Source: a bacterium (lineage in GTDB: Bacteria; Patescibacteriota; Patescibacteriia; UBA2196). Taken from it: 64,000 nucleotides of DNA. The stretch covers positions 43,392 to 107,391 of the forward strand of contig DAOOOW010000001.1 of the NCBI GenBank assembly GCA_035387885.1, in the 5' to 3' direction. Position 1 is the first letter of the stretch. Each line of letters begins with the position of its first letter. The position numbers and the translations under genes were made by a program. Shown in pieces: positions 381 to 62,360 of the stretch. The notes beneath the pieces were generated by a model. The model searched no databases. It was given only the letters and a program-made list of their open reading frames with translations, and was not told the DNA's origin.

Positions 381-1137
381 CAACTTTGTTACTATTTCTT
401 TTTGAGAAACGGACAAATATTTCTATTTATCTCTCTAATTCGCATTAGAGTTCGGACTATATCTTCCGCGCCTCCTCGGCGGGTCTAGCGTATAGTCTCT
501 GAGGATTTTAAAGATATAAATCTTGTTTTTTCGTTTTACGATACTTACCATTAACATTCATTTTATAAGCCAAATTAATAATTTTTTTAATTCCTGCTCT
601 ATTTGAATGAGCCCCACTTTGCATTAAAAAAACTATTTGCTTAAAAATTGTAAATGACTTTTGTTTGTCAGAAATAAAATTATATTTTTCAAAAAAAGGT
701 ATAATTTTATCAATTAAATCATCTCTATTTCTAACAACAAAAACATATGTATCGTCTTTCTTATTTTTAACATGGTTTTGTTTTAAATATCCGCAATCAA
801 AATATTTCTTTATAGTTTCCAAAATTTCTAATCGTAAATAACTTTGATTAATATGAAATTCTGGAATTACTTTTATTCCCTGTTTCATTTGCGGATCCTT
901 ATAGAAAGCGACATGAAAAGTTCCTTCACCTTCAGTAAAACCAACAATATACCATGGATTTATATGCTTTAATCTTTCCTGCTGATTGTCTGCGCTCAAC
1001 ACATTGTCACTATGTTTTATATTTTTCATCTATTTATTATAACATAGTAGTGTGAGATACTTCAACTCCTGTTCCTAAAAGGAGTTGGCCAGATTTTCCA
1101 GCATTTAGCTAGATTTATAGACAGCATGGATACTCCT
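381..1137 (-). mobile_element. Group I intron interrupting 23S rRNA, encoding a LAGLIDADG homing endonuclease
   Basis: 23S collinearity breaks after ...GAGACAGT (1138) and resumes at TTGGTCTCC (380). The minus-strand base before the 3' exon is G, consistent with the terminal guanosine of group I introns. The insertion point is near the E. coli 2593 region. Confidence 0.7.
508..1029 (-). CDS. LAGLIDADG homing endonuclease (intron-encoded, single-motif)
   Basis: Contains a LAGLIDADG-type motif (WYIVGFTEGEGTF). The ORF lies wholly inside the 23S intron. Confidence 0.85.
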   Translation of the reverse strand: MKNIKHSDNVLSADNQQERLKHINPWYIVGFTEGEGTFHVAFYKDPQMKQGIKVIPEFHINQSYLRLEILETIKKYFDCGYLKQNHVKNKKDDTYVFVVRNRDDLIDKIIPFFEKYNFISDKQKSFTIFKQIVFLMQSGAHSNRAGIKKIINLAYKMNVNGKYRKTKKQDLYL

Positions 1138-1171
1138 ACTGTCTCACGACGTTTTGAACCCAGCTCGCGTA

Positions 1172-1205
<34 letters not shown>

Positions 1206-1212
1206 GCTTCTA

Positions 1213-1248
<36 letters not shown>

Positions 1249-1475
1249 GAACTCCGCCGTCGCTATGGACGCTTGGGCGGAACTAGCCTGTTATCCCCGG
1301 AGTAGCTTTTATTCAATGATCTTTCAGCCACCTATATGGCATGATCGGTTCACTAACTTATGCTTTCGCAACTGCTCGTCTTGTTGGACTTGCAGTAAAG
1401 CAGGCTTAAGGGTTTGCCCTATCAATCCCGTTTCCATCGGGATCTAGCCTACCTTTGTAAATGCCTCCGTTACTT

Positions 1476-1507
<32 letters not shown>

Positions 1508-2889
1508 ACCAGATAATGTCCCCCTATAGGGGTTAGACTTACTAAATAACAAGGGTGGTATCTCACTATTGTCCCGATTGCTCGGGGCTCCCACCTATGC
1601 TGAACATGTTAATCAATAAATCAATATCAAGTTGTAGTAAAGCTTCACGGGGTCTTTTCGTCTAACTGTGAGAAGCCAGCATCTTTACTGGCATTGCAAT
1701 TTCACCGAGTCCCTTTTTAAGACAGTTTTCAGACCGTTATGCCATTCGTGCAGGACGGAACTTACCCGTCAAGGAATTTCGCTACCTTAGGACGATTATA
1801 GTTATCGCCGGCGTTCATCCGCGCTTCGGATCAGAGCTAGTCTCGATAAATCGATTTTCACCCCTCACGTTAACGTTCGGACACTGGCCAGGCATCAGCC
1901 CCTATACGTAGTCTTGCGACTTAGCAGGGACCTGTGTTTTTGGTAAACAGTCGCCTGAAACACGTTGGTTGCACCCCACATTGCTGTGGGGAGAGCTTAT
2001 CCCGAAGTTACGCTCGTTTTTTTGCCGAGTTCCTTAAAAAAGGGTTCTCTCGTTCACCTTAGTATACTCAACCCGCCTACCTGTGTCGGTTTACGGTACG
2101 GTTACTTTAATTCATGACTCTTGGTTTTTCTTGGCATTCAATCACATGAATTCGATCCAGCCGGAGCTTTCACTTCTACCAGCCGCGCCTCGTTAGACTC
2201 GGGCGGAAATCTCAAATTCCAAATCCTAAATTCCAAATAAATATCAAATTTAAAAAATCAAATTATAAATTATTTTAAAATTTAAAAATTTAATCATTAA
2301 AAATTATTTGGAAATTGAAAATTGAAAATTGGAAATTCCGTGCCGAATGCAATGAGGCACGGCCGGAACGTCATAGCCATAGGACGCTCATTCACTTGAA
2401 TACGTCGCCAAAAAGATAAAATTAAAGTAGGACAGGAATATTAACCTGTTCTTCCATCTTGTGTGACCCTTGGGCCATACAATTAGGATCGCCTAACCCT
2501 GGGATGACAGTCATTGCCCAGGAAACCTGAGGCTTTCGGTGGGCAGGATTCTCACCTGCCTTTTTGTTACTCATGCCAACATTCTTACTTCTGCTTCCTC
2601 CACACTCCCTCGCGGGATATGCTTCGCAGGTTAACAGAATACTCCTCTACCACATCACTGCTACGCAGTGGAAATCCGAAATCACAAATTCTAAATCCGA
2701 AACAATATCTAAATTCAAAAAAATAAAATATTAAAATTTTAAATTTAAATTTTTTAAATTTGTTTCGAATTTCGATATTCGAATTTCGTGCTTCCATTGC
2801 GAAGCAATGACATCCTCATCTTCGGTATTATATTTAGCCCCGAACATTTTTGGCGCATCTTCTCTTGACCAGTGAGCTATTACGCTATC

Positions 2890-2921
<32 letters not shown>

Positions 2922-3505
2922 TGGTTGTATGAGAAAAAACACCACCTTTAACACTTAATATAAATTTAGGGACCTTAGATAGAGATCTGGGCTGTTTCCC
3001 TTTTGACAATGAAGCTTAGCCCCCACTGTCTGACTACTGGAAATTTTAACCGGTATTCGGAGTTTGGTTGGGGAGGATATCTTGCGACTCCAGCCCCATC
3101 CAGTGCTCTACCCCCGGTTAAATATTAACCAGCGCTAGCCCTGAAGCTATTTCGAGGAGAACCAGCTATTACCAGGTTCGATTGGAATTTCACCCCTAAC
3201 CACAGCTCATCCCCGCGTGTTGTACGGCGCGTGAGTTCGGACCTCCTCCCACATTTCTGAGGGACTCATCCTGGCCATGGCTAGATCACCTGGTTTCGGG
3301 TCATACACATGCTGCCTTAAACGCCCATTTAAGACTTGGTTTCCCTATGCCTTAATCCGATTAACGGACTTAGACAAGCAACATAAGTATACTCGTTGGC
3401 TCATTCTTCAATAGGCACACCATTGTCCCGATTACTCGAGACTTTGATTCTTTGAAAACGTATGGTTTCAGAAACTATTTCATCCCCCTCACCGGGGTGC
3501 TTTTA

Positions 3506-3536
<31 letters not shown>

Positions 3537-4710
3537 ATCTTCGAAAGTATTTAGCCTTGGGGCATAGTCGCCCCTGCTTCAAACAGGATTTCACGTGTCC
3601 TGCCCTACTTAAGGTTCGTCATAATGAGATCTTTTCTTTTTGTATACTGGACTATCACCATCTGTGGTATTAGCTTTCCAGCTAATTTCTACTAAGAAAA
3701 AATTTTGTAACTCATTTTTTGTGTTATAAGCCACAAAAACTGACGCCTTGCAACACCTTAAACAGCAACGGCTCATACCTTTAAATACCGCTGCTCCGCA
3801 TCGGCATGCTAATTAATACAAATTATTTACGAATTATACAAATATAAATATTCGTAATAATTCGCAATTTTAATTCGCAAAATTCGCAGTCCAATGCGAA
3901 GCATTGGTAAAACACTGTTTAGGTTTAGGCTTTTCCCGGTTCGTTCGCCACTACTACGGGAATCATTATTATTTTATTTTCCTCCGCTTACTGAGATGTT
4001 TCACTTCAGCGGGTAAGCATCCCTCACTAACTTTTTGCTCCTTTAAAATTTAATCTTAAACATTTTTTGTTCATAAATATTTTATTTTTTATTTACAAAC
4101 ATTTTTATAAAAAAGATAAAATAATAAGCAGAAAGTTAGTGAGGGATAACGCAGGTTTACTACGTTGAGTTTCCTCATTCGGAAATCTCCGGATCAAAGT
4201 TTGCTTGGGAACTCCCCGGAGCTTATCGCACCCTGCCACGTCCTTCATCGCCTTTCGAAGTCTAGGCATCCACCATACGCCATAGTTCTAATATCCTTTT
4301 AAAAATCTTTTATTTTAAAATTTGAAACGTATTTATTACGTGCCTGCCCCGCATTTGCGGGGTAAAAAGATCACGCTTGTCCCGCGACTGCGGGATAAAT
4401 TCGCTTCGTTTTTACTCGATGTACATCCAGCACTAACTTTTTGCCAGTTTAAATATTTATTCTTAAAAACATTATTTAAAAAAATAATTTCTATTTTCCA
4501 TTAAACAAGGTCAATTAAAAAATAAATAAGCAAAAAGTTAGTGCTGGATAAATTGCTTTTACTTTATATATTGATTTCTCCTTTAATAAATTTTTAAAGT
4601 CCTATCCTTATCAACTAATTTCCATCTATTATATATAAACAAAAATTAACTGATAAATTTTTTCAAAATATTCGCATTTAATTCGCAATTTCAATTCGCA
4701 CAATTCGCAT

Positions 4711-6534: not shown

Positions 6535-9129
6535 TTATTTTTTTGGCAAGGGGTGCCTCAATCGCCAAATTAAAATAACTAAAATTAAAATAATTAACCA
6601 AGAAAAAACCAACAAATATGGCCACCAAGTACTCAATTTCTTTTCTTGGCCAGAAATTGTTGGATTTTTTGTTTCTTGCGAGTTGTTGGTGATAATAATA
6701 TCTTCTTGGCTTCTTGGCAAAATCCTTAAACCACTTTCGGTGGGCGAAAAAATACCACTTACTGCAACTCTGGCAGCTAAAGTTAAATTAAGTTCAGACA
6801 TATTTAAATTAGTGCCGGACTTTAAAGTTACTTTGATTTCACCGCTCCCATCATCTAACCAAAAATAATCTTTACCAATGTCTGTAATTTCGCCAATTAT
6901 TTTTATTAAAGAACCTTTCCAGGAGTCATCTTCTTTTAATTCAACAATCTCAATTTGTTCGGCTTGAGGCAAATCTGCCAGAGCTATTTTTGTAATGGCC
7001 GATTGATCTTTAATTTTAATTCTTCTTTCACCATAAGCTGTGCTTAATTCCCCAACAATTTGCAGGCGCTCGCCAAGTTGTAATTCTGGCCAATCTTTTT
7101 TAGAAGAATATATTTGTATACCTTCAGTCCCGACCACATAAAAAATGTTTACACCCAAAACTCCAGGCAAAACCGCCACCACTCCCTCGATTTGTACGTT
7201 GGTGCCATCTGCCAATTCTTTAATATCGGCCAAGGTTGTTTTTGTCAAACTTGTACCTAAAACTTTTGTAGTAGTTTTTTTAGTTGTCGCAGTTGTAGCT
7301 GCTTTAGGAGTAGTATTTTCTTCTTCTTGCCACCAAAATTTTTCTGCCACTTCTGATTTAATAATTTCAGTTTTTTCATCAAACAAATTTTCTGAATCAA
7401 TAACTTTTAAACCAATTTTTAAAGGCAATTTATCTAATTTAATAGTTAAAAGCGGGGAAGAGGTCGAAAATGTGCTGGTGGCATTATTTAAAATACTAAC
7501 TGGATAATTAAAATGCCATTCGTAAATTAAATCTTCACCTTCAGGATCACTTGATTCGCTAGCATCTAATAAAATTTCTTGGCCCGAATTTATTTCCCCA
7601 CTGACTTCAAAATAGGCATCAGGGGCTAAATTATTTCTAGTGTATAAATTAATGGCTAAAGGTGTGGCAGTTTTAGACCAATAATATTGTCCATCAGCAG
7701 CCAACATATAGACTTCGCCTTCTAAAACATTTTTAGAATATTTAAGAGTATCGACAATTTTACCTGTTGGATCAAGCAATTGGATTTCTTCACCGCCAGT
7801 ATTTTTTAAATTCAAATTAGTAATATATTTTGGCAAAAGAAAAAAATGTCCAGCTTCCAAATAAGGCCACTTAAAATCTGTTTCTTTAATAATGTATTCA
7901 CCAAGTTCAGTTTTAATTTTCCAATCAACCAAAGGAAACATTTCGCCTTCTAAACTTTTTATTTCTATCCACTCGCCTAAATTTTCTGAATTTATTTCTT
8001 TATTTAAAATTTTTTTCTGATCAAAAGGCTTGTCTAGCTTTAAATTGCCAAAATCTGAGCCAATTGGATTAGCCATAATTTCATTAAGCTTAAATCTTTG
8101 GGCATAAGTTTTTATATAAGATGCGCCCGAACCACCGCCAGCGGTTTCTTTTTGTATTTCCGTAATAATATTATCATTATTTTGTGTTTGGCTAGTACTC
8201 CAATACCAAACACTAAACTCGTCTCTAGCCCAAACAACTTCTTCGGGCGCGCTTTCAATGTAACTAATTTCACAAACTAAATTATTTTGCTCATCAAATA
8301 GACGCACTGTTTCTCCACCTGTATTATTTAAAGATAAACCAGTAATATTTTTGGGTAGCACAAAAAAACCATTGTCCAAAATTGTAGTTGTAGCAAAATC
8401 CGCAATTTTAATAACATAACTGGTGTTAGCCAAATCACTAATTTTCCAATTAATCAAATCAATCGTTGTAGTGCTTAAATTTTTTAATTCAATCCATTCA
8501 TTATCATCAACTCCAGCTGGATTAGGCAGCAACTCATTAATAACGATTTTATGGTCAGAAGTTTCTACGGCTGGCGCGACAACCCCAGAACTATTTTGGG
8601 CTTGGGGTGTACCATTGGCCAGGGCGCTGTTTTGCCAATTCAAATCAGTTTTTCTTTCCATGGTTAATTTATTATCTTTATCACCGGCCAACCAGGCACT
8701 GCTATTATCAACCAGGTCAATAACCTGGCCTTCGCTGTCAATTAACTGCAATATTTCTCCTGTATCTTCCAGAGCACCAGAATAAATTTGATTAGCCACA
8801 ATTTCTGGCACAGTATTATCGTCTGTGCGTTCTAATAGATAATATTCGCCGGCAGCTAAAGTACTAGAAGCTAAGTGGATTAAGGGTGAGCCATCTTCAG
8901 CTTTAAGAATCCAGCCTGTTAAATCAATGCTTTGTGAACTAATATTTTTTAATTCTAACCATTCCTTACTGGATGAATCGCTATTACCCATCCAAGCAAT
9001 TTCATTAATTAAAACATCTTGGAAATTAACTGCTTGCGCTGGTTTTAAAAATAAAAAAATCCCGCTAAATAGCGAGACACCAAAACAAGCAAATATTATA
9101 ATAAATTTTAGCAGTTTACTTTGCATAAG
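6535..9129 (-). CDS. Large secreted/anchored surface protein with three lamin-tail-domain (LTD) repeats, a PKD-like domain, a Thr/Lys-rich linker and a C-terminal TM anchor
   Basis: Start chosen at MQSKLL (signal peptide), because the longer ORF overlaps tRNA-Leu. Repeated NE(I/L)..NP.G.D..EWIELKN.S...IDL..W motifs typical of LTD. C-terminal hydrophobic helix. Confidence 0.7.
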   Translation of the reverse strand, partial: LMQSKLLKFIIIFACFGVSLFSGIFLFLKPAQAVNFQDVLINEIAWMGNSDSSSKEWLELKNISSQSIDLTGWILKAEDGSPLIHLASSTLAAGEYYLLERTDDNTVPEIVANQIYSGALEDTGEILQLIDSEGQVIDLVDNSSAWLAGDKDNKLTMERKTDLNWQNSALANGTPQAQNSSGVVAPAVETSDHKIVINELLPNPAGVDDNEWIELKNLSTTTIDLINWKISDLANTSYVIKIADFATTTILDNGFFVLPKNITGLSLNNTGGETVRLFDEQNNLVCEISYIESAPEEVVWARDEFSVWYWSTSQTQNNDNIITEIQKETAGGGSGASYIKTYAQRFKLNEIMANPIGSDFGNLKLDKPFDQKKILNKEINSENLGEWIEIKSLEGEMFPLVDWKIKTELGEYIIKETDFKWPYLEAGHFFLLPKYITNLNLKNTGGEEIQLLDPTGKIVDTLKYSKNVLEGEVYMLAADGQYYWSKTATPLAINLYTRNNLAPDAYFEVSGEINSGQEILLDASESSDPEGEDLIYEWHFNYPVSILNNATSTFSTSSPLLTIKLDKLPLKIGLKVIDSENLFDEKTEIIKSEVAEKFWWQEEENTTPKAATTATTKKTTTKVLGTSLTKTTLADIKELADGTNVQIEGVVAVLPGVLGVNIFYVVGTEGIQIYSSKKDWPELQLGERLQIVGELSTAYGERRIKIKDQSAITKIALADLPQAEQIEIVELKEDDSWKGSLIKIIGEITDIGKDYFWLDDGSGEIKVTLKSGTNLNMSELNLTLAARVAVSGIFSPTESGLRILPRSQEDIIITNNSQETKNPTISGQEKKLSTWWPYLLVFSWLIILILVILIWRLRHPLPKK

Positions 9130-15888: not shown

Positions 15889-16812
15889 ATGAAAAAGAGC
15901 GAAACTTTTATTCCGGGCGCCAACCAAATCAGTATTGGGTATGTAGCACTGTTCCCCGGAAAACTGACCCAGCTGAGAGACGACATCCCATGGGTAAAAA
16001 CCCGTGTGCTCAACGGCAATTTGCCGGGGACGGAAAAGGACTCGGGGATAACCGTGGTGCCGTGTCATTTGGATCACGGCAAAATCACCTTACCCGAGGA
16101 CATTGCCAACCACGCGTGTATCCAAAGATGGGAACGCGATGGTGTGACCCATCAAGAGGGCGGTCCGCTTCAACCGGTTTATGCCCTCAAGTCTGTTGAA
16201 AGACGCGGAAAGGATGAAAATGGCAATGGATTCGTCATCCTGCCGTGTCTTACAGATGGCAGTGCCCCCTATGGGTCATTTGTACCCGCCCAAGACGGCC
16301 AAAAAGATTACATCGTCGCCTATGTCAACAACATTGTGGACGGCATAACGGTTATGCTGATGGTGGAAGCCATTGAAAACGGAGTCTATCACGCCCACAT
16401 CTCGGTCGCGAATTTTACAGTCAATAGTATGACCGGGGAAGTTTTGCGTGAGAACGCCATCAACAGAGCGTTTGTGGTCGAAGGACGTCCGGATACTCTG
16501 CCGAATTTTTCTTCAAGAGTCGGCGAAAAGTATCTCGAAGCCTTTAAGGCGGCTATGGCCATTTTCAAAAGTATGGCGAAAGGCGAACGCCAGTGCGCCA
16601 TGTGGGTCAAGGACATTACCCGTCCGATCACTGCCCCCGTCCCCGATGCACCGTCTCCGGTTGAAGAACCGGCATCGGCGCCCGCTCCGGAAGCGAAAAG
16701 CAAAGGTGGCAAAGGCAAAAAGGCTGCCAAACAGCCCACGGCCGATGTCACGACCAATGGTGGCAACGGCCACACCGACACTGTGCCAGCCCCCAACGAA
16801 GTTGTTGCCTAG
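15889..16812 (+). CDS. Hypothetical protein, strongly GC-rich (about 50% GC against about 30% background), Pro/Ala/Lys-rich C-terminal tail
   Basis: GGAGGAGG RBS before ATG 15889. No family recognised. Confidence 0.6.
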   Translation: MKKSETFIPGANQISIGYVALFPGKLTQLRDDIPWVKTRVLNGNLPGTEKDSGITVVPCHLDHGKITLPEDIANHACIQRWERDGVTHQEGGPLQPVYALKSVERRGKDENGNGFVILPCLTDGSAPYGSFVPAQDGQKDYIVAYVNNIVDGITVMLMVEAIENGVYHAHISVANFTVNSMTGEVLRENAINRAFVVEGRPDTLPNFSSRVGEKYLEAFKAAMAIFKSMAKGERQCAMWVKDITRPITAPVPDAPSPVEEPASAPAPEAKSKGGKGKKAAKQPTADVTTNGGNGHTDTVPAPNEVVA

Positions 16813-18319: not shown

Positions 18320-18391
18320 GCCCTTGTCGTTCAATGGATAGGACATGAGCTTGCGGAGCTCACAATGTAGGTCCGATTCCTACCGAGGGCA
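18320..18391 (+). tRNA. tRNA-Arg (anticodon read as GCG, with an unusual TCCGATT T-loop)
   Basis: Hand-folded cloverleaf: acceptor GCCCTTG/CGAGGGC, anticodon arm TGAGC-TTGCGGA-GCTCA. C at position 55 is atypical. Confidence 0.55.
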
Positions 18392-18552
18392 AAGATGATC
18401 ATAAAAAAATCTGCCAGTAAAAGTAAAGGTATTTTGTAGGTCCGTGGGTTTCGCGGTGTCCCTAAAGGGACACATCACTCAACCCGTTGTGGCTATAAAA
18501 ACTAAAGCAGTTTAGTTTTTATTTAACGCCACAACTCCTACCGAGGGCAAAG
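18392..18552 (+). repeat. tRNA-adjacent repeat element with a GCAG-loop hairpin, ending in a duplicate of the tRNA-Arg 3' end (CTCCTACCGAGGGCAAAG)
   Basis: Repeat of GTAGGTCCG and of the tRNA 3' end. Hairpin ATAAAAACTAAA-GCAG-TTTAGTTTTTAT is homologous to copies at 52565 and 26290. Confidence 0.5.
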
Positions 18553-18659
18553 ATAATTATAAAAAATAATAAAAATAATGATAAAAAGATAAAATTGACA
18601 AAAAATATTTTCTGAAGTATAATGGCTTTAGAGACAAAAATCAACCTTTTTACCTTTAA

Positions 18660-39141: not shown

Positions 39142-39204
39142 ACTAATTGATTTATTTTACTATAAATAAAAAACCCGCGGCGTAGTTCAACCGCGGGAAT
39201 TTTT

Positions 39205-39531
39205 CTACCAAAGACACTTCTCAGTGTCTTTGGAAGGAGGAACTGCTTCGAGAGGTATGACTACCTCTCGAATCTCTCTGGGGCCTTCAACCCCAGAGGA
39301 GAGTATGTGCAACGCAAGCGAAACGGTTGCGTTGCACATACTTAGTGGTTTAATTACCAAAACTTTTTTTTCTCCGTCACAACTGACGGAGAAAAAATTT
39401 TTTGTCTCCTCCTCTTCTGTCGCGAGGAGGAATATTACAACCTGGGCCACCCACTTGAGGCCCTCAGAGTAAGGGGGCTTGCCGCCCTCCTCTCTGAATC
39501 GAGCAACCATTTCGCGTGCTGCCTGAATCAT
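39205..39531 (-). ncRNA. GC-rich array of eight consecutive, unrelated perfect hairpins (stems 5-13 bp) ending in a terminator. Candidate structured RNA. The nominal 109-aa ORF is probably not a real protein
   Basis: About 52% GC against about 30% background. The hairpins are listed in findings. Preceded by the shared leader element and an RBS-ATG. Confidence 0.35.
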
Positions 39532-39565
39532 GCTATTTCTCCTTTTTTCTCCCACCAGCCCCATG

Positions 39566-39652
39566 CCAGTAGGCTACTGCCTTAAAGTTATCGAGCAAAT
39601 AAGACCAAAAGATTTTATCCGCTCTTAGTTTTTAAGGCATAAGTCTACTGGC
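39566..39652 (-). promoter_or_regulatory. Conserved structured leader/operator, copy 1 (CCAGTAGACTTATGCCTTAA ...45 nt... TTAAGGCAGTAGCCTACTGG)
   Basis: About 90 nt nearly identical to the inverted copy at 61317-61406. Related to 41275-41360. Confidence 0.6.
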
Positions 39653-39821
39653 AAATAAATTTTAAAGGTGCTCTTTTTATTTAAATTAATTATCAAAATT
39701 TTTACTGCTTTATCTAACACTATAATTATCACATTTTTATCAAAAAGTGTCATTTCTGTCGACAAAATTATTAACTTGCTATTTTATTTTGCTTATATTA
39801 TAATAAAAATGAATAAATTTT

Positions 39822-39840
39822 TTGTCGAAATTTTCGACAA
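39822..39840. promoter_or_regulatory. Perfect 19-bp palindrome TTGTCGAAATTTTCGACAA upstream of the TrmB-like gene. A second TGTCGACA lies at about 39757
   Basis: Read directly. Candidate operator. Confidence 0.4.
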
Positions 39841-39862
39841 AAAACCCTAAAAACTAAAATTT

Positions 39863-40606
39863 ATGTTAGATAAAAAACTTATCCACACCCTTATTAAAAT
39901 TGGTTTAAATGAAAAAGAAGCCGAAATCTATCTGTCCTCTTTAGCTTTAGGTCCTAGCACAGTCGCTAAAATTAGCCAATCCTCTCAAATAAAACGCACT
40001 ACTGTGTATTCAGTAATTGAATCTCTAAAAGAAAAAGGGCTAATGTCTATCCAATTAAAAGGTTTCAAACAATTCTATGTGGCTGAAAAACCAGATAAAT
40101 TAGCAGATTTTTTAGAAGAAAGAAAAAAAACCCTTAAAAACGCTCTACCACAATTCGAATCTCTATATCAAATGAAAGGCATAGAAAGCGTTATTAAGCA
40201 TTATGAAGGTCTAAACAACATTAAAAGCTTATACAACAGCGTTTTAGCTGATTTAAAATTTAAAGATGATTATTTAACCATCTCTGATACTAAACGTTGG
40301 CTAGCTCAAGATGAAGAATTTTTTAATGATTTTATTAAAAAAAGAGCTAAACACAGAGCCAGAGTTCGTTTGCTTTTACAAGACAATGAAGTGGCTCAAA
40401 ACTTTAAACAATTTCAAAGAAACTATGGTATTGAAGTCAAAATATTGCCTATGGACACAGAGTTAAACACTAATTTGCTGGTTGTTCCTAAACAACTAAT
40501 TATTCAGCAATTAACCATACCCTATGAAGCTGTGGCTATAGAAAATCAAAATATAATTAATATGGGCAAGCAACTGTTTGAAATTATTTGGTCAACCTGC
40601 AAATAA
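39863..40606 (+). CDS. TrmB-family transcriptional regulator
   Basis: N-terminal wHTH (LNEKEAEIYLSSLALGPSTVAKISQSSQIKRTTVYSVIESLKEKGL). Length 247 aa. Paralog of 41662. Confidence 0.75.
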   Translation: MLDKKLIHTLIKIGLNEKEAEIYLSSLALGPSTVAKISQSSQIKRTTVYSVIESLKEKGLMSIQLKGFKQFYVAEKPDKLADFLEERKKTLKNALPQFESLYQMKGIESVIKHYEGLNNIKSLYNSVLADLKFKDDYLTISDTKRWLAQDEEFFNDFIKKRAKHRARVRLLLQDNEVAQNFKQFQRNYGIEVKILPMDTELNTNLLVVPKQLIIQQLTIPYEAVAIENQNIINMGKQLFEIIWSTCK

Positions 40607-40653
40607 AAAAGCCGAGATGTTGCCACCTCGGCCGTACTGCTGACTCGTCATCA

Positions 40654-41235
40654 TTAGAATGTGTGTTTCAACGCTGCCATGAATAACGGCGTTTTTTTAT
40701 CTAGGTTATAGGTTGCCGACAAAATAATTTTTTCATTACCACAAGGCAAAGAATAATTTATCGTCGGCATATGCGCTGGTTTTTCATCCAGGTAGTGCAA
40801 CACAGAGAAACCTGCACCAAAATTACCAGCTACAACATCCACAGAATGATATGCAAAACAGAAATTCGCCTTCCAAGTCGGTTTCAATACTTCACCAGCC
40901 ATTACACCAAACCAGCTGGTGAACGTTACAAACTTGGCAAAGTTTGGGGTGTAACCGACAAATGGCCCAGCCCAGACCGTTTTATAATAGACCCCAAAGC
41001 TAGGACCTACTGAAATCCCTGAGGGCAGATTTTTTAAAAAAATAAATTGCCCCAAGGTGCTGTTGAACTCGGCCATTAAAAGTATACTTTTTGCCGAATC
41101 AAGAACAGTTACTGCTCCACCCAGGCCAGAGCTAAGAGCGCTTTGGCCAGATGAAACTTTTATGTCAGTGACTTTTTGGGCCATCACCATGGTGGCAACG
41201 GCCAATACCAGCATCGCGATCATCATCTTTTCCAT
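40654..41235 (-). CDS. Secreted beta-barrel-like protein (OmpW/OmpA-like outer-membrane-protein texture) ending in a C-terminal Phe
   Basis: Signal peptide MEKMMIAMLVLAVATMVMAQ. Alternating hydrophobic beta-strand pattern. C-terminal ...LKHTF. Elevated GC. Preceded by leader copy 3. Confidence 0.5.
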   Translation of the reverse strand: MEKMMIAMLVLAVATMVMAQKVTDIKVSSGQSALSSGLGGAVTVLDSAKSILLMAEFNSTLGQFIFLKNLPSGISVGPSFGVYYKTVWAGPFVGYTPNFAKFVTFTSWFGVMAGEVLKPTWKANFCFAYHSVDVVAGNFGAGFSVLHYLDEKPAHMPTINYSLPCGNEKIILSATYNLDKKTPLFMAALKHTF

Positions 41236-41274
41236 AACCACCTCGTATTTTAGTGAATACTCCTGCCGGACTTT

Positions 41275-41360
41275 CCAGCAGAATAGTGCCTTAATTATTG
41301 TCAAACGATCAAAAGCAATCATACTTTGGTCGTTCTTAGTTTTTAAGGCATAAGTCTGCT
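41275..41360 (-). promoter_or_regulatory. Conserved structured leader/operator, copy 3 (compensatory T-to-C change in both arms)
   Basis: Arms CCAGCAGACTTATGCCTTAA / TTAAGGCACTATTCTGCTGG, against CCAGTAG.../...CTACTGG in copies 1 and 2. Confidence 0.5.
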
Positions 41361-41615
41361 GGAAATAAATTTTTAAAGTGCTGTATATCTTTTTATTTGC
41401 CATTCAAAAACTCTTCCTTGTTGTGAGAAGAGTTGAGAGTTATAAATCTAATATCTGGTGCTTTTGAGGAAATTAATCCTCTTGGCACTTTTTCTCTCTT
41501 CTCATTCTCTATTACTAGAATAGCATTTTAAAGGTATTTGTCAATAATTATGCCACATTTAAAAATGTTCTAATGGCTTAAGTTAGGCAATAATACCTTA
41601 TTTAATAAGACATGT

Positions 41616-41632
41616 TGTCAGAATTATTGACA
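41616..41632. promoter_or_regulatory. Palindrome TGTCAGAATTATTGACA upstream of the second TrmB-like gene
   Basis: Read directly. A similar TGTCAATAATTA lies at about 41549. Confidence 0.35.
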
Positions 41633-41661
41633 CATTTAAGAAAATTTGCTATACTTTATAT

Positions 41662-42393
41662 ATGGAAATAGAAGAAAAATTATTAGTTGATTTGGGGCTT
41701 TCCCCAACCGAAAGCAGAGTGTACCTAGCTGTTTTAGAGTTAAATAGCAGTACAGTCTTAAACATTGCCAAAAAAGCAGGCATCAAAAGACCAACCTGCT
41801 ATTTAAATTTGGATAATTTAGTAATCAAAGGCTATGTCACGAGAATTGAAAAACACAGTACCACTTTGTATACAGCAGAAAAACCAAGTTTTATTTTAAA
41901 TAAATATAAGGAAAAAATAGAAAACTTTAAAGATTTACTGCCTTTTTATGAAGCGAAATTTAATCGCGGTCCCAAGCCAAAGATTAGATATTATGAGGGT
42001 AAAGAAGAAATTTGGAATATTTATACAAAAATCATTTTTCCCTCTGAAGAACTGTATTTTTTTGGCACCGACATACAAAAAATAGAGAAAAACTTTCCCA
42101 ACCTGCTTGATTATTGGTTAAAGAAATTTTCTTCTAAAAATAAAAAAATGATGGAAATTGTTTCTTTTAATGAAGCCGGCTTTAAATACATGACCAAATA
42201 TAAAAAAAATCACCTCATAAAAATTATGCCAGCCAATCTGCCGGTTTTTGCTGATTCGGTTATTACAGAAAATAAAATTTTTATTATTTCTCTGAAAAAT
42301 CTTTTTGGGGTTTTGATTGAATCAGAAGACTTGGCCAAGACTTATAAAAATTTTTTCTTACTGGCTTGGCAAGCGGCTAAAAAAATGAAATAA
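41662..42393 (+). CDS. TrmB-family transcriptional regulator (paralog)
   Basis: wHTH LGLSPTESRVYLAVLELNSSTVLNIAKKAGIKRPTCYLNLDNLVIKGYV. Length 243 aa. Confidence 0.75.
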   Translation: MEIEEKLLVDLGLSPTESRVYLAVLELNSSTVLNIAKKAGIKRPTCYLNLDNLVIKGYVTRIEKHSTTLYTAEKPSFILNKYKEKIENFKDLLPFYEAKFNRGPKPKIRYYEGKEEIWNIYTKIIFPSEELYFFGTDIQKIEKNFPNLLDYWLKKFSSKNKKMMEIVSFNEAGFKYMTKYKKNHLIKIMPANLPVFADSVITENKIFIISLKNLFGVLIESEDLAKTYKNFFLLAWQAAKKMK

Positions 42394-42399
42394 ATTTTT

Positions 42400-43060
42400 G
42401 TTCCATATAGAACATTTAAAATAAAGTTTTCCACCAAAAATCTCTATTTAAGGCACTTTTCCACAAATTGTCTACACTAGTGTAGACAATTTTTATTTTA
42501 GCAAAAATAAGCCTTTAAATGTTCCATGTAGAACATTTAAAATAAAGTTTTCCACCAAAATGGCTTTTTTTTACCACTTATACACATTTTGTCTACACAC
42601 GTCTAGACATTTTATTAATTTTCACTCAATCACAACCAGTTTTTACTCTTGTCAGCTAGTTCTTTTTTTTTAAGATAATATTATTTAAAAAAATAAAGTT
42701 TACCCATCGGGGTTTAATTTTATTGTTAAATAATTGCAGTATGATAAACATTTTGTTCCATGTAGAACAATTTTAATTATTTTGGCAGATATTTATTCTA
42801 AATTAGGCATTTTCATAAAAATTGAATTTTTATGAAAAAATGCCTTTTTTTAGTCTTTTTGTTTATTATTAGCCAAAATCACCATTTTTCCAAAAAAAAT
42901 TGAATTTTTATGAAAAAAGAGTGTTTTTTACTTAAATTAGCCATTTTAGTCATTTTTCCAAAAAAATCCATCGTTTGACAAAATTAAATAAATATTTTTT
43001 TATTTAAAAAATGTCTACACAGGTCTAGACATTTTATTTTTTAATATTTTTTATCTAAAA
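42400..43060. repeat. Non-coding cluster of three iteron-like repeat families
   Basis: TGTTCCATGTAGAACATTTAAAATAAAGTTTTCCACCAAAA at 42400, 42522, and partially at about 42753. Palindrome TGTCTACAC..GTCTAGACA at about 42468, 42588 and 43012. AAAATTGAATTTTTATGAAAAAA at 42818 and 42897. Confidence 0.55.
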
Positions 43061-52242: not shown

Positions 52243-52539
52243 GCAATTAATTTAGCGAAGAATCTTGGTTGGGATGATTTAAAAAATGAGATTAGAGGCG
52301 AAGTAGATGGTATGATTAATAGATGGACAATAAAAAATAAAGAATAAAATTTATAAAAAATAAACCCCCTGAGAATATCAAGGGGTTTTACAATTAAAGT
52401 AGGGGCACAAAATTTTGTGCCCCTACAAAAAATACTCCGCAGCTACAAGCGTGGGGTTAATTTTAACTTCGTTCACTGTTAGTTAAAAAACTAGATCCCT
52501 CCGCTCGTTCTTACAGTGGGTTTCACAATGCCTGTCGAC

Positions 52540-52760
52540 ATAATGCTTCACCCATTGTGGCTATAAAAATTAAAGCAGTTTAATTTTTATTTAACGCCAC
52601 AACTGGTCGAGATAAACTGCAGGAAAAAATAATGAGCTACCCCGCATCTAAAAGTGCGGGGTTAATTTTAACTTTGTTCGCGGGTGGTTTTGCCGTCATT
52701 CCATTCGGCAAAACCTGGCTCACTTCGTTAAAATTAAAAAGCCCCGAGCAGGCGGAGCTA
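52540..52760. repeat. Cluster of repeat-family copies (GCAG-loop hairpin, CCCCGCA..TGCGGGG hairpin, GTCATTCC element)
   Basis: CTATAAAAATTAAA-GCAG-TTTAATTTTTAT with compensatory changes relative to 18495. GGGGTTAATTTTAACTT occurs twice. Confidence 0.5.
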
Positions 52761-60564: not shown

Positions 60565-60759
60565 ATGAAAAATTTAAACTATAATATTATTTTAAAACCA
60601 GAAAAGCAAGGCGGTTTTACTGTGGTTGTGCCATCTTTACCTGGTTGTGTAACATATGGCAGAGATTTAGCAGAAGCCAAGAAAATGGCTAAAGATGCTA
60701 TTAAAGTTTATGTGGCAAGTTTGGTTAAACACAAAGAATGCGCTTTCTGTAAAATTTAA
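60565..60759 (+). CDS. HicB-family antitoxin-like protein (UPF0150), apparently orphan
   Basis: ILKPEKQGGFTVVVPSLPGCVTYGRDLAEAKKMAKDAIKVY matches the HicB N-terminal domain. TATAAT at about 60521. No hicA seen. Confidence 0.65.
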   Translation: MKNLNYNIILKPEKQGGFTVVVPSLPGCVTYGRDLAEAKKMAKDAIKVYVASLVKHKECAFCKI

Positions 60760-61007
60760 TTAAATAGGATTTTATTCGTAGGGACAGGTTTGAAACCTGT
60801 CCTTTTGGTTTGGTTGGGTTTTTATCCTCTCCTTATAAAACAGGTACCTATTTTTGTTGGCTCCAATCTCCTGATTGGAGCCTTAGTGCTTCATTAGTGT
60901 AATTAAAATATAAAAAATATAATAAAGAGGCATTGTGTCTCCAGTCAGGAGACTGGAGACAACCAACAACGGCAAACTTTAATTTGAAAAGGCGGGGACT
61001 AATTACT

Positions 61008-61039
61008 TGTGGATAAAATTTATTAATGGTTGTGGATAA
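61008..61039. promoter_or_regulatory. Two consensus DnaA boxes (TGTGGATAA) in direct orientation
   Basis: Exact 9-mers at 61008-61016 and 61031-61039. Confidence 0.45.
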
Positions 61040-61138
61040 AACCTTACTTTTGTTATAAAACTATAACTTTAAATATGATTAATTTTGGCTTAATTTAGCA
61101 TAAAATAGCATTAAAAAAGCTAATTTTGATATAAATAC

Positions 61139-61167
61139 TTGACAAATATTTTAATCTGTGCTATAAT
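61139..61167 (+). promoter_or_regulatory. Perfect consensus sigma70 promoter (TTGACA-17-TATAAT)
   Basis: Read directly. Followed by a transcript of about 100 nt ending at terminator CCCCTGCTCTTCTCTAAGAACGCGGGGTTTTT (61243-61275). Confidence 0.6.
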
Positions 61168-61316
61168 GACTGCAGAGAATGAGAGGAGAAAAAAGTCTAG
61201 AAAGAATTAATTCTTTTAAGGCGTTGAAATTAGTTTTTAATTCCCCTGCTCTTCTCTAAGAACGCGGGGTTTTTAAATCGAAAAATATAAAAATAGTACT
61301 TTGATAATAAAAATAT

Positions 61317-61406
61317 TGCCAGTAGACTTATGCCTTAAAAACTAAGAGCGGATAAAATCTTTTGGTCTTATTTGCTCGATAACTTTAAGGCAGTAGCCTA
61401 CTGGCA
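61317..61406 (+). promoter_or_regulatory. Conserved structured leader/operator, copy 2 (inverted duplicate of 39566-39652)
   Basis: About 90 nt near-identical to the reverse complement of copy 1. Precedes the receiver-like ORF. Confidence 0.6.
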
Positions 61407-61449
61407 ATGAGGCTGGTTGGAAAAAAATAAAAAAAGAAAAGAGGAAACA

Positions 61450-62004
61450 ATGAAGGTTTTGATCGTTGAAGACCAGCTTAGGCTGGGTGGAAGAGGTGGC
61501 CGCTGGTTGGAATCAGAGGAGTTTTGCTCTCTACTCGAGCAAGCTACGGGTTATGAAATTTTTCACTGCCAGGATGTATTTTCGGCAGTGGAAATTTTAA
61601 GGAAGGAAAAAATTGATTTTGTGGTAACAGATATGGGGTTGCCACAAAAGGCAGGAGAAGAGCCTTCTCCTGTTGCGGGACTGCAGATAGTAGAAATCCT
61701 TAAGAGTGAAAAAATTCCTTTTAAGGTTTTTACAAGTGTCACTCACTGCGCACATGCTTTAACTGCTGCAGCAGAGGCTGGTCTGATAACAGCAGAATGG
61801 GCCATGTGGGTGCAAGATCACCATGTGGAAATGGAATACGCGGCTTCGGCCGAGGACGACCCACGGTTTCCTCCCAAGTTAGATAGAATCGGGGAATGGA
61901 AACACGGCGGGATGGTGATCTTCGGATGTTTCGTTGTTGGAGGAAAAAGACCTGTTTTTTTGGAGGATTTTATAAAAAAATGGGTCAAAGTAATATCAAT
62001 GTAG
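61450..62004 (+). CDS. Receiver-domain-like (CheY-like) protein with a C-terminal extension, GC-rich
   Basis: MKVLIVEDQ...GYEI....DVFSAVEIL...KIDFVVTDMGLP...GLQIVEIL......KVFTSV. Phosphoacceptor-like Asp in VVTDMGLP. About 50% GC. Confidence 0.55.
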   Translation: MKVLIVEDQLRLGGRGGRWLESEEFCSLLEQATGYEIFHCQDVFSAVEILRKEKIDFVVTDMGLPQKAGEEPSPVAGLQIVEILKSEKIPFKVFTSVTHCAHALTAAAEAGLITAEWAMWVQDHHVEMEYAASAEDDPRFPPKLDRIGEWKHGGMVIFGCFVVGGKRPVFLEDFIKKWVKVISM

Positions 62005-62360
62005 AAATCTCCCTCACTTACGCAAAGCACCGTGTAAGTGAGGGACTACTGCCCTTGCCGCAAAACAGCGCGGCAAGGGCTTTTTATTTTTTTAAAAAAT
62101 ATGTTATGCTTAAGGTATAAAATTGTTAAAATTGATTTTTAGTGATAAAATATAGCTGTAAGAAACTTAATTAAATCATTAACTTCAGCGCATCTATTTT
62201 TTTAAAAGGAAATTCAATAAAGGCTTCTGTGGTAATTAGAAAAAGCAGGGGCTTTTTATTTTTTTTAAATTTGCTATAATTAATTTGAATTATTCTATAA
62301 TCTATGATACATTAAAGTTATCAATTTTGTTAACTTTCGTGTATTATTAATTTTTAGCCT

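Follow-up and report, generated by a model that had tools for sequence, protein, structure and literature searches.

A conserved three-helix leader hairpin in three copies upstream of unrelated genes in a Patescibacterium

Structured elements in the 5' untranslated region (UTR) of bacterial mRNAs are known to act in several ways. The 5'-terminal stabiliser stem-loops of E. coli ompA and of the B. subtilis aprE and ermC leaders block RNase J and 5'-end-dependent decay. RNase III leader hairpins, such as the phage T7 R1.1-type signals and those in the pnp and rnc leaders, are cleaved, and this cleavage sets mRNA stability. The NMT1/xanthine and folE/THF-II motifs are riboswitch aptamers consisting of a hairpin with an internal loop, which overlap the ribosome-binding site (RBS) or a terminator and occur in many genera, and second-messenger riboswitches control genes of the surface-barrel and receiver sort. 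At the DNA level, integron attC sites combine two 7-bp boxes, an unpaired spacer and a variable terminal structure, and they accompany variable genes that are often orphan and of atypical GC. Finally, Matus-Garcia, Nijveen and van Passel are said to have described in 2012 'mobile promoters', i.e., homologous 5' regulatory regions placed before unrelated genes in one genome.

We analysed a window of 64 kb from a Patescibacteria-like bacterium with a small genome, the whole stretch of DNA presented here, in which an initial annotation had noted a structured leader or operator in three copies. This observation is confirmed, and the element, of about 95 nt, is real and under selection. The two 20-nt arms that had been given for it (CCAGYAGACTTATGCCTTAA and TTAAGGCASTAKYCTRCTGG) are present exactly as described and each match at three sites, against a chance expectation of about zero. 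The hairpin arms are 20–25 bp long and 85–88% complementary, and the two arms within each copy cross-match with 2–3 mismatches. A covariance model built from the copies and run over the 64-kb window with filters off returned three copies only (108–128 bits), with the antisense of the same three copies at 42–52 bits and the next unrelated hit at 18 bits. The copies, each identified by its arms, folding and the covariance model, are the following:

39563 to 39654, minus strand: leader hairpin copy c1 (107.7 bits), with P1 at 39654-39645 / 39572-39563, P2 at 39638-39632 / 39585-39579 and P3 at 39624-39615 / 39602-39593
41272 to 41365, minus strand: leader hairpin copy c3 (128.3 bits), with P1 at 41365-41356 / 41281-41272, P2 at 41349-41343 / 41294-41288 and P3 at 41335-41326 / 41312-41303
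61316 to 61407, plus strand: leader hairpin copy c2 (111.6 bits), with P1 at 61316-61325 / 61398-61407, P2 at 61332-61338 / 61385-61391 and P3 at 61346-61355 / 61368-61377

The near-identity reported between c1 and c2 amounts to 100% over 92 nt of hairpin and 98% over 100 nt. Copy c3 has the same architecture, including the swap from U-A to C-G in P1 that had been read as a compensatory T-to-C change. The folding energies of the copies (-37.9 to -46.7 kcal/mol, compared with -14 to -20 in shuffled sequences) correspond to z-scores of -8.1 to -9.0, with none of 200 shuffles folding as well, and the opposite strand of the hairpin folds about equally well. Three coaxial helices are present in every copy: P1 is separated from P2 by an internal loop that is partly paired, and a junction links P2 to P3. 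The same P1-P2-P3 arrangement was recovered independently by RNAalifold. The element had been described as two 7-bp helices around a 6x6 internal loop, closing a loop of about 45 nt, and this description holds in part. Both helices exist, but P1 is 9–10 bp long rather than 7 and carries a second compensatory pair (G-C versus U-A), whereas P2 has 7–8 bp. The internal loop is located as described, yet it is partly paired (3–4 pairs). The 45-nt loop does not exist as such: P2 is followed by the junction AAACUAAGA and then by a third helix, P3, of 10–13 bp.

Covariation was assessed in five distinct sequences, i.e., c1, c2, c3, the c3 copy of strain L019, and the c3 copy of the sister species L025. 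Across these five, 97% of the cells are paired, versus 27–47% with slid partners, and double-sided (compensatory) changes are seen at 5–6 pairs, versus 0–2 in the slid controls. They comprise two pairs in P1 (G-C/U-A and U-A/C-G) and three in P3, and at column pair 39/71 all of G-C, G.U and A-U occur. In c3 one pair is disrupted, and P2 is invariant throughout. Because only 2–3 independent lineages are represented, we regard this covariation as supportive and not as statistically decisive. The G.U versus A.C counts lean towards the sense strand in c1 and c2, towards the antisense strand in L025, and are neutral in c3; they single out neither strand, so a role at the DNA level keeps some probability. 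The junction bases vary as well, from C to U in L019 and from G to A in L025. A mini-ORF in the 5' arm (AUG-CCU-UAA) was disregarded, having no Shine-Dalgarno sequence.

Taken together, P1, the 3–4 internal-loop pairs and P2 form a near-continuous duplex of about 23–27 bp with P3 on top, which exceeds the coaxial length of at least about 20 bp of RNase III substrates. The element thus resembles RNase III leader hairpins in having a coaxial duplex of about 22–27 bp in the 5' UTR, broken by an internal loop. RNase III sites, however, are without the extra P3 and the conserved junction found here, and the likeness is one of fold only.

The sister species L025 (Logan SRR32414324), which was reached via homology to gene B, the gene behind c3, has the c3 ortholog in place. 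Between the window and L025, the element differs at 2 of 100 positions, compared with 9 of 140 (6.4%) in the unit that lies upstream of it, 18% in the 33 nt between element and ATG, and 14–25% in the remaining intergenic DNA. Divergence is 10% in the regulator gene TrmB2, 29% in gene B, and 16–20% in neighbouring housekeeping genes. At a rate of 0.16, the chance of two or fewer differences per 100 positions is 5e-6. Both L025 substitutions in the element (columns 20/91 and 39/71) turn a non-Watson-Crick pair into A-U. Among strains about 5% apart, each hairpin copy has 0–1 change, versus 19% in gene B. These strains are mosaic, with 0% diverged segments adjoining 19% segments, so recent recombination may add to the low divergence of the element. 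The sharp minimum of divergence exactly at the hairpin nevertheless argues for constraint. L025 is without the entire TrmB1-c1-gene A module, i.e., c1 with the genes on either side. The bounds of this species-level insertion or deletion differ from the ends of the element, and in this respect it is unlike attC.

Outside this species and its sister species, no relative of the element was recovered. The whole window searched against Rfam 15 at the gathering threshold gave rRNA and tRNAs only, and E-value scans of 39150-41450 and 60700-61500 gave the hairpin at most 21 bits, of miRNA-type noise, where the thresholds are 68–171. An exact 18-mer search of the GTDB representative genomes returned 12 hits, all by chance, none with the second arm and none in a Patescibacterium. 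A gapped-pattern search of JGI metagenomes returned 27 loci, all of them lacking both P1 and the junction, and two viral scans as well as BLAST against phage and plasmid sequences gave no match. As far as exact-pattern and BLAST searches reach, the element thus seems to be confined to this species and one sister species, and to be lineage-born. The homologs of window proteins that carry a source name are from Patescibacteria. The 23S rRNA gene of the window (1053-4296, minus strand) is 3244 nt long; compared with the bacterial model it is enlarged by several sizeable insertions, two of which measure 104 and 152 nt.

Each copy is oriented in sense with the gene that follows and lies 27–45 nt upstream of an RBS and ATG, at the distances first reported. 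The flanking sequences are shared between copies as well:

39655 to 39680, minus strand: upstream flank of c1, AAATAAAAAGA..GCACCTTTAAAAT, recognised by sequence comparison
41366 to 41392, minus strand: the same upstream flank at c3
61288 to 61315, plus strand: the same upstream flank at c2
39532 to 39562, minus strand: 3' flank of c1, which contains the gene A RBS and the block G(G/U)C(U/C)GG..GGA common to the copies
41236 to 41271, minus strand: 3' flank of c3, with the shared block and an RBS
61408 to 61449, plus strand: 3' flank of c2, with the shared block and an RBS

In none of the three copies was a fitting AT-rich promoter found between hairpin and RBS, and therefore any transcript of the downstream gene includes the element in its 5' UTR. 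From the position of plausible promoters upstream, we infer that the element is transcribed and where its transcript would start. In all copies, a -10-like hexamer in the upstream flank ends 4–7 nt before the first paired base, and the hexamers have no -35 partner; the promoter role of this flank is putative. The homology between c1 and c2 extends over an alignment of about 145 nt, and that between c1 and c3 covers 25 nt upstream and the 5' half, followed by the shared 3' block. The element is similar to mobile promoters in that this block of about 145 nt, 98–100% identical, precedes the non-homologous genes A and C. It differs from them in being dominated by covarying RNA structure and in being conserved in the sister species.

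A small mobile element, either a remnant or an active copy (MITE, REP or attC-like site) that came to lie before genes by chance, would account for the terminal inverted arms and for near-identical copies before unrelated genes, as with c1 and c2 over 92 nt. The layout of helix, unpaired spacer and helix is like that of attC, in which paired boxes also surround a spacer and are linked to variable genes of atypical GC; other repeated intergenic hairpin modules occur in this genome, and the cargo genes at the same spot differ by species. The homology between copies, however, continues about 25 nt beyond both arms (about 25 nt upstream and about 15–30 nt downstream), so that the duplicated unit is larger than the palindrome. 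The sequences flanking the arms (TTTG/CATG in c1, TATTG/CAATG in c2 and ATTT/AAAG in c3) extend the inverted symmetry instead of forming direct repeats, i.e., there are no target-site duplications. No transposase or integrase is found among the Pfam-annotated neighbours of the copies. The concern that the element might be the end of a known IS or MITE is not borne out either, considering these flanks and the phage, plasmid and viral collections without a match. The attC boxes RYYYAAC / GTTRRRY are absent, the outer helix reading CCAGYAG / CTRCTGG on either strand. The copies, at 39.6, 41.3 and 61.3 kb, do not all share a strand, and c3 is separated from c1 by a gene of opposite orientation; they thus do not form an array of co-oriented cassettes. 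The element consequently differs from attC by having no R-box consensus, integrase or array, and by sitting in a leader at fixed spacing to the RBS. All three copies keep the same orientation and spacing to the start codon, and the orthologous copy is kept in place in the sister species. We therefore consider a mobile element quite improbable. An invertible promoter was rejected, as the segment between the arms has only 46 bp and its orientation is the same in all strains.

Upstream of c2 and c3, and absent from c1, lies a second structured unit:

61139 to 61282, plus strand: c2 upstream unit, with a 12/12 consensus promoter and, after it, about 100 nt of structured RNA beginning with AGAGAAUGAGAGGAG and ending in a hairpin and U-run
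41396 to 41544, minus strand: c3 upstream unit, homologous to that of c2, with compensatory changes in the inner hairpin

The unit is also found in L025, at 6990-7145. Its structured RNA starts with AGAGAAUGAGARGAG and had no Rfam match. For c2 and c3, the strongest consensus promoters are found some 145 nt upstream of the hairpin, which would make the hairpin internal to the UTR and not its 5' end. The hairpin of c2 and c3 could then be the second domain of a leader of about 275 nt, in which the upstream unit is the real switch and the hairpin only a processing site in between. Consistent with this proposal, the unit begins at the predicted +1 and folds as a closed domain, the 3' strand of its closing helix can alternatively form a hairpin followed by UUUUU, and its inner hairpin shows compensatory changes, with a G.U kept in L025. 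Against it, the terminator scan called none of the terminator-like hairpins, which are weak, and c1 has the hairpin without the upstream unit, so the two modules are separable. A long leader of this kind is unlikely in our estimation, and the upstream unit itself may represent a small RNA gene or, alternatively, an attenuator domain. The idea that the hairpin pairs with the upstream unit was rejected: the perfect 11-nt complement in c2 (UUAGUUUUUAA / UUAAAAACUAA) has 3 mismatches in c3 and in L025. A long near-perfect hairpin was also observed at 60852-60967, between a HicB-like gene and the c2 upstream unit, for which Rfam gave miRNA-type noise only.

The leader hairpin itself bears no sign of a switch. 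None of the copies was called in the terminator scan, in which P1 is followed by CAUGGGG, CAAUGAGG or AAAGUCC and by no U-run, and folds of the full leaders left the hairpin intact, with no conserved pairing to the RBS or start codon. The absence of a terminal U-run and of RBS contact indicates that the element is not a terminator, an attenuator or an RBS-sequestering switch. This bears on the proposal of a riboswitch, in which the three genes would be controlled through binding of a small molecule, or of a second messenger, to the internal loop and junctions. The leader position, the three helices and the invariant 5' strand of internal loop and junction would suit a riboswitch, as would targets that comprise surface-barrel and receiver proteins. 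Like the NMT1/xanthine and folE/THF-II motifs, the element is a single extended hairpin in the 5' UTR with a conserved internal loop and junction. In contrast to those motifs, it is without an expression platform, is limited to one species group and has no Rfam match. Besides, it is nearly all helical with few conserved unpaired bases, and the junction bases differ among strains and species. Since neither a terminator nor an RBS-sequestering platform is present, we regard a riboswitch as very improbable.

The genes behind the hairpin are mutually unrelated:

39205 to 39531, minus strand: gene A, encoding 108 aa, GC 0.49
40654 to 41235, minus strand: gene B, encoding 193 aa with a signal peptide, GC 0.43
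61450 to 62004, plus strand: gene C, encoding an atypical receiver-domain protein of 184 aa, GC 0.45

Their GC content of 0.43–0.49, versus 0.33 window-wide, agrees with the atypical composition first reported. A strongly GC-rich ORF at 15889-16812 on the plus strand (GC 0.53, 307 aa, no Pfam match) has no hairpin upstream, and GC-richness and the leader are thus not strictly linked. Whether the downstream genes are acquired, as had been proposed, is uncertain.

Gene A had been described as a hairpin array. Its mRNA is indeed a chain of 6–7 near-perfect to perfect hairpins, with a terminator at 39197-39174, but a non-coding nature as the sole reading is rejected, as the ORF is kept and its changes are coding-like, 8 of 12 strain differences falling at third codon positions. 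Searches of Pfam and PHROG gave no match for gene A. In L053, a different gene occupies this spot and is followed by a terminator, CCCCGCGGTTGCACTATGCCGCGGGG, homologous to that of gene A.

The OMP-like character reported for gene B is in line with its structural model (pLDDT 94), a 12-stranded beta-barrel like the KdgM/NanC outer-membrane porins (TM 0.57–0.63), and with its C-terminal Phe, as in the OMP beta-signal. The family comprises 83 remote representatives of about 200 aa, of which the few with a source name are from Patescibacteria. Patescibacteria are usually held to lack an outer membrane, and a full-text literature search returned no paper evidently on Patescibacteria beta-barrel porins, judged by title and abstract. 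Gene B is hypervariable, differing by 19% between strains with identical flanks. It was rejected as the target of a diversity-generating retroelement, given that the differences are gene-wide and mostly synonymous. A gene B homolog of 42% identity at L063 has a plain short leader, without the element.

For gene C, one word-seeded search returned no homolog outside its own cluster. In a related strain (L015, 10556-12060), two extra genes follow gene C, a second GC-rich receiver-like gene of 164 aa and one of 222 aa, which are missing from the strain of the window (62005-62100). The two genes appear to have been lost through recombination between the repeated terminator hairpins CCCTCACTTACRC...GTGTAAGTGAGGG. 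The slot between a conserved methyltransferase gene and TrmB2 holds different small genes per species (L053 2480-4010, L064 1-745 and L025 6150-8730), namely a member of the 182/164-aa family, a 118-aa receiver or a beta-barrel, and from these contents it appears to be a hotspot of variable genes.

Two of the copies, c1 and c3, are divergent from genes for TrmB-family regulators, an assignment made in the initial annotation that Pfam supports for both (E 1e-13 to 1e-14):

39863 to 40606, plus strand: TrmB1, a wHTH regulator divergent from c1 and absent from L025
41662 to 42393, plus strand: TrmB2, a wHTH regulator divergent from c3
39753 to 39725, minus strand: predicted promoter of gene A, ATGACA-17-GATAAT
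39757 to 39764: palindrome TGTCGACA beside the -35 of the predicted gene A promoter, a candidate TrmB1 operator
39818 to 39844: palindrome TTTTTTGTCGAAA/TTTCGACAAAAAA just downstream of the TrmB1 promoter, a candidate autoregulatory operator

TrmB1 and TrmB2 are 24% identical, which makes them old paralogs, and TrmB2 has more than 130 homologs, of which the named ones are from Patescibacteria. The hairpin could be a DNA operator, whose nested inverted repeats would bind a regulator in dimeric or tetrameric form (TrmB1, TrmB2 or another) that blocks or activates transcription of the gene behind them. The long complementary arms described above, the divergent TrmB genes at two of three copies, and the equal folding of both strands with near-palindromic arms are what an operator would be expected to show. 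On the other hand, the central helix P3 covaries, which would be unneeded in a protein-bound DNA palindrome. An association between the element and TrmB genes is not supported: at c2 no TrmB gene is divergently adjacent, and the closest one, a third paralog, lies about 3–4 kb downstream on the same strand; the sister species is missing TrmB1 together with c1 and gene A; and the TrmB2 orthologs in four other species, L053 (80% identity), L064 (76%), L056 (73%) and L058 (68%), face other genes and are without the element. Regulators as diverged as TrmB1 and TrmB2 would also have to read nearly the same arms. The separate TGTCGA palindromes lie at the promoters and none is within the hairpin, and the TGTCA..TGACA motif that had been taken for a further palindrome consists of two divergent -35 boxes. 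The element is thus independent of TrmB, and we consider an operator improbable. TrmB1 probably controls its two divergent promoters at the DNA level, and the hairpin would be a separate layer.

The end of the predicted TrmB2 promoter (41627-41662, TTGACA-17-TATACT with TG) is 7 nt away from the ATG, suggesting that the mRNA is leaderless. Just downstream of TrmB2 lie two tandem 94-nt modules (42399-42492 and 42520-42613), 80% identical, with the palindromes TGTTCCATATAGAACA and TTGTCTACACTAGTGTAGACAA in each. In L064, the gene divergent from TrmB2 is preceded by a mini-hairpin, GCCAGUAUAAUCUGGC followed by GGGAGAAAAAAUG, which resembles the P1 base and the c1 3' flank; speculatively, it might be a collapsed or ancestral form of the element. 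Elsewhere in the window, the 3' end of a tRNA-Arg gene is duplicated (18378-18408 and 18536-18566; region 18378-18566) around an insert of about 130 nt. Within the insert is a 68-nt hairpin module, GTTGTGGC...GCCACAAC, of which another copy lies at 52537-52604 beside a TGTCGACA palindrome, and a further repeat pair is found at 52433 and 52638 (region 52433-52700).

The initial annotation had left open whether this is a cis-regulatory RNA or an operator. Considering the compensatory changes and the conservation, we retain the first of these, a cis-acting structured leader element of three genes, while the covariation of P3 disfavours the second. A structured leader acting at the RNA level is the likely nature of the element. 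For the more specific reading, that it is a lineage-specific, duplicated, promoter-proximal leader acting on RNA as a stability, processing or factor-recognition hairpin, we see about even chances. Under this reading, a module consisting of a short promoter-proximal flank, the hairpin of about 95 nt and the 3' flank would have been duplicated before three unrelated accessory genes and transcribed within their 5' UTRs. The hairpin, always folded, would serve as a recognition or processing platform that sets a common fate for the three mRNAs.

Among RNA-level functions, a role in stability or processing is our tentative choice. In one version, the hairpin would be protective at or near the 5' end against 5'-end-dependent decay by RNase J; an enzyme of this kind is encoded in the lineage, at the L025 locus (Pfam RNase_J domains). 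The element is comparable to the stabiliser stem-loops in being a stable hairpin at or near the start of the leader, upstream of and apart from the RBS, that stays folded at all times, can be moved between genes and is without a terminator tail. It differs from them in size and conservation, as the known stabilisers have 10–30 nt and are not conserved in sequence, whereas the element has about 95 nt, three helices and a near-invariant sequence, and its 5'-terminal position is putative. In a second version, the hairpin would be cut by a double-strand-specific RNase or bound by a sequence-specific factor, with the invariant 5' half (ACUUAU, GCCUUAA, AAACUAAGA) as the recognition surface. As the function of the RNA-level leader, binding of a dedicated factor is almost as probable as a role in stability or processing, although each of the two is by itself less likely than not, and ligand sensing by a riboswitch has a very low probability there. 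Within this scheme, a trans-acting factor and the sense in which the element would shift expression are both putative.

A bolder proposal, which we hold to be improbable, is that the hairpin is bound by a dedicated protein or small ligand, which as a trans-acting factor would switch on a small, fast-evolving set of host-interaction genes in an epibiotic Patescibacterium. If true, the element would represent a new lineage-born RNA regulon signal for a KdgM-like secreted barrel, atypical receivers and a small protein of unassigned role. The conserved leader and terminator hairpins would then also be recombination anchors for the exchange of cargo genes.

Overall, the element is a candidate new cis-regulatory RNA motif within the broad class of structured 5'-UTR leaders, and not a new principle. 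Its scope is narrow, as the motif occurs in one species group only. To our knowledge, gene regulation in Patescibacteria is almost unexplored. A selected leader placed before three genes of odd composition, and better conserved than these genes are, would give a concrete handle on post-transcriptional control in this group, and the genetic tools under construction for Patescibacteria might also draw on it as a transferable module for expression or stability.
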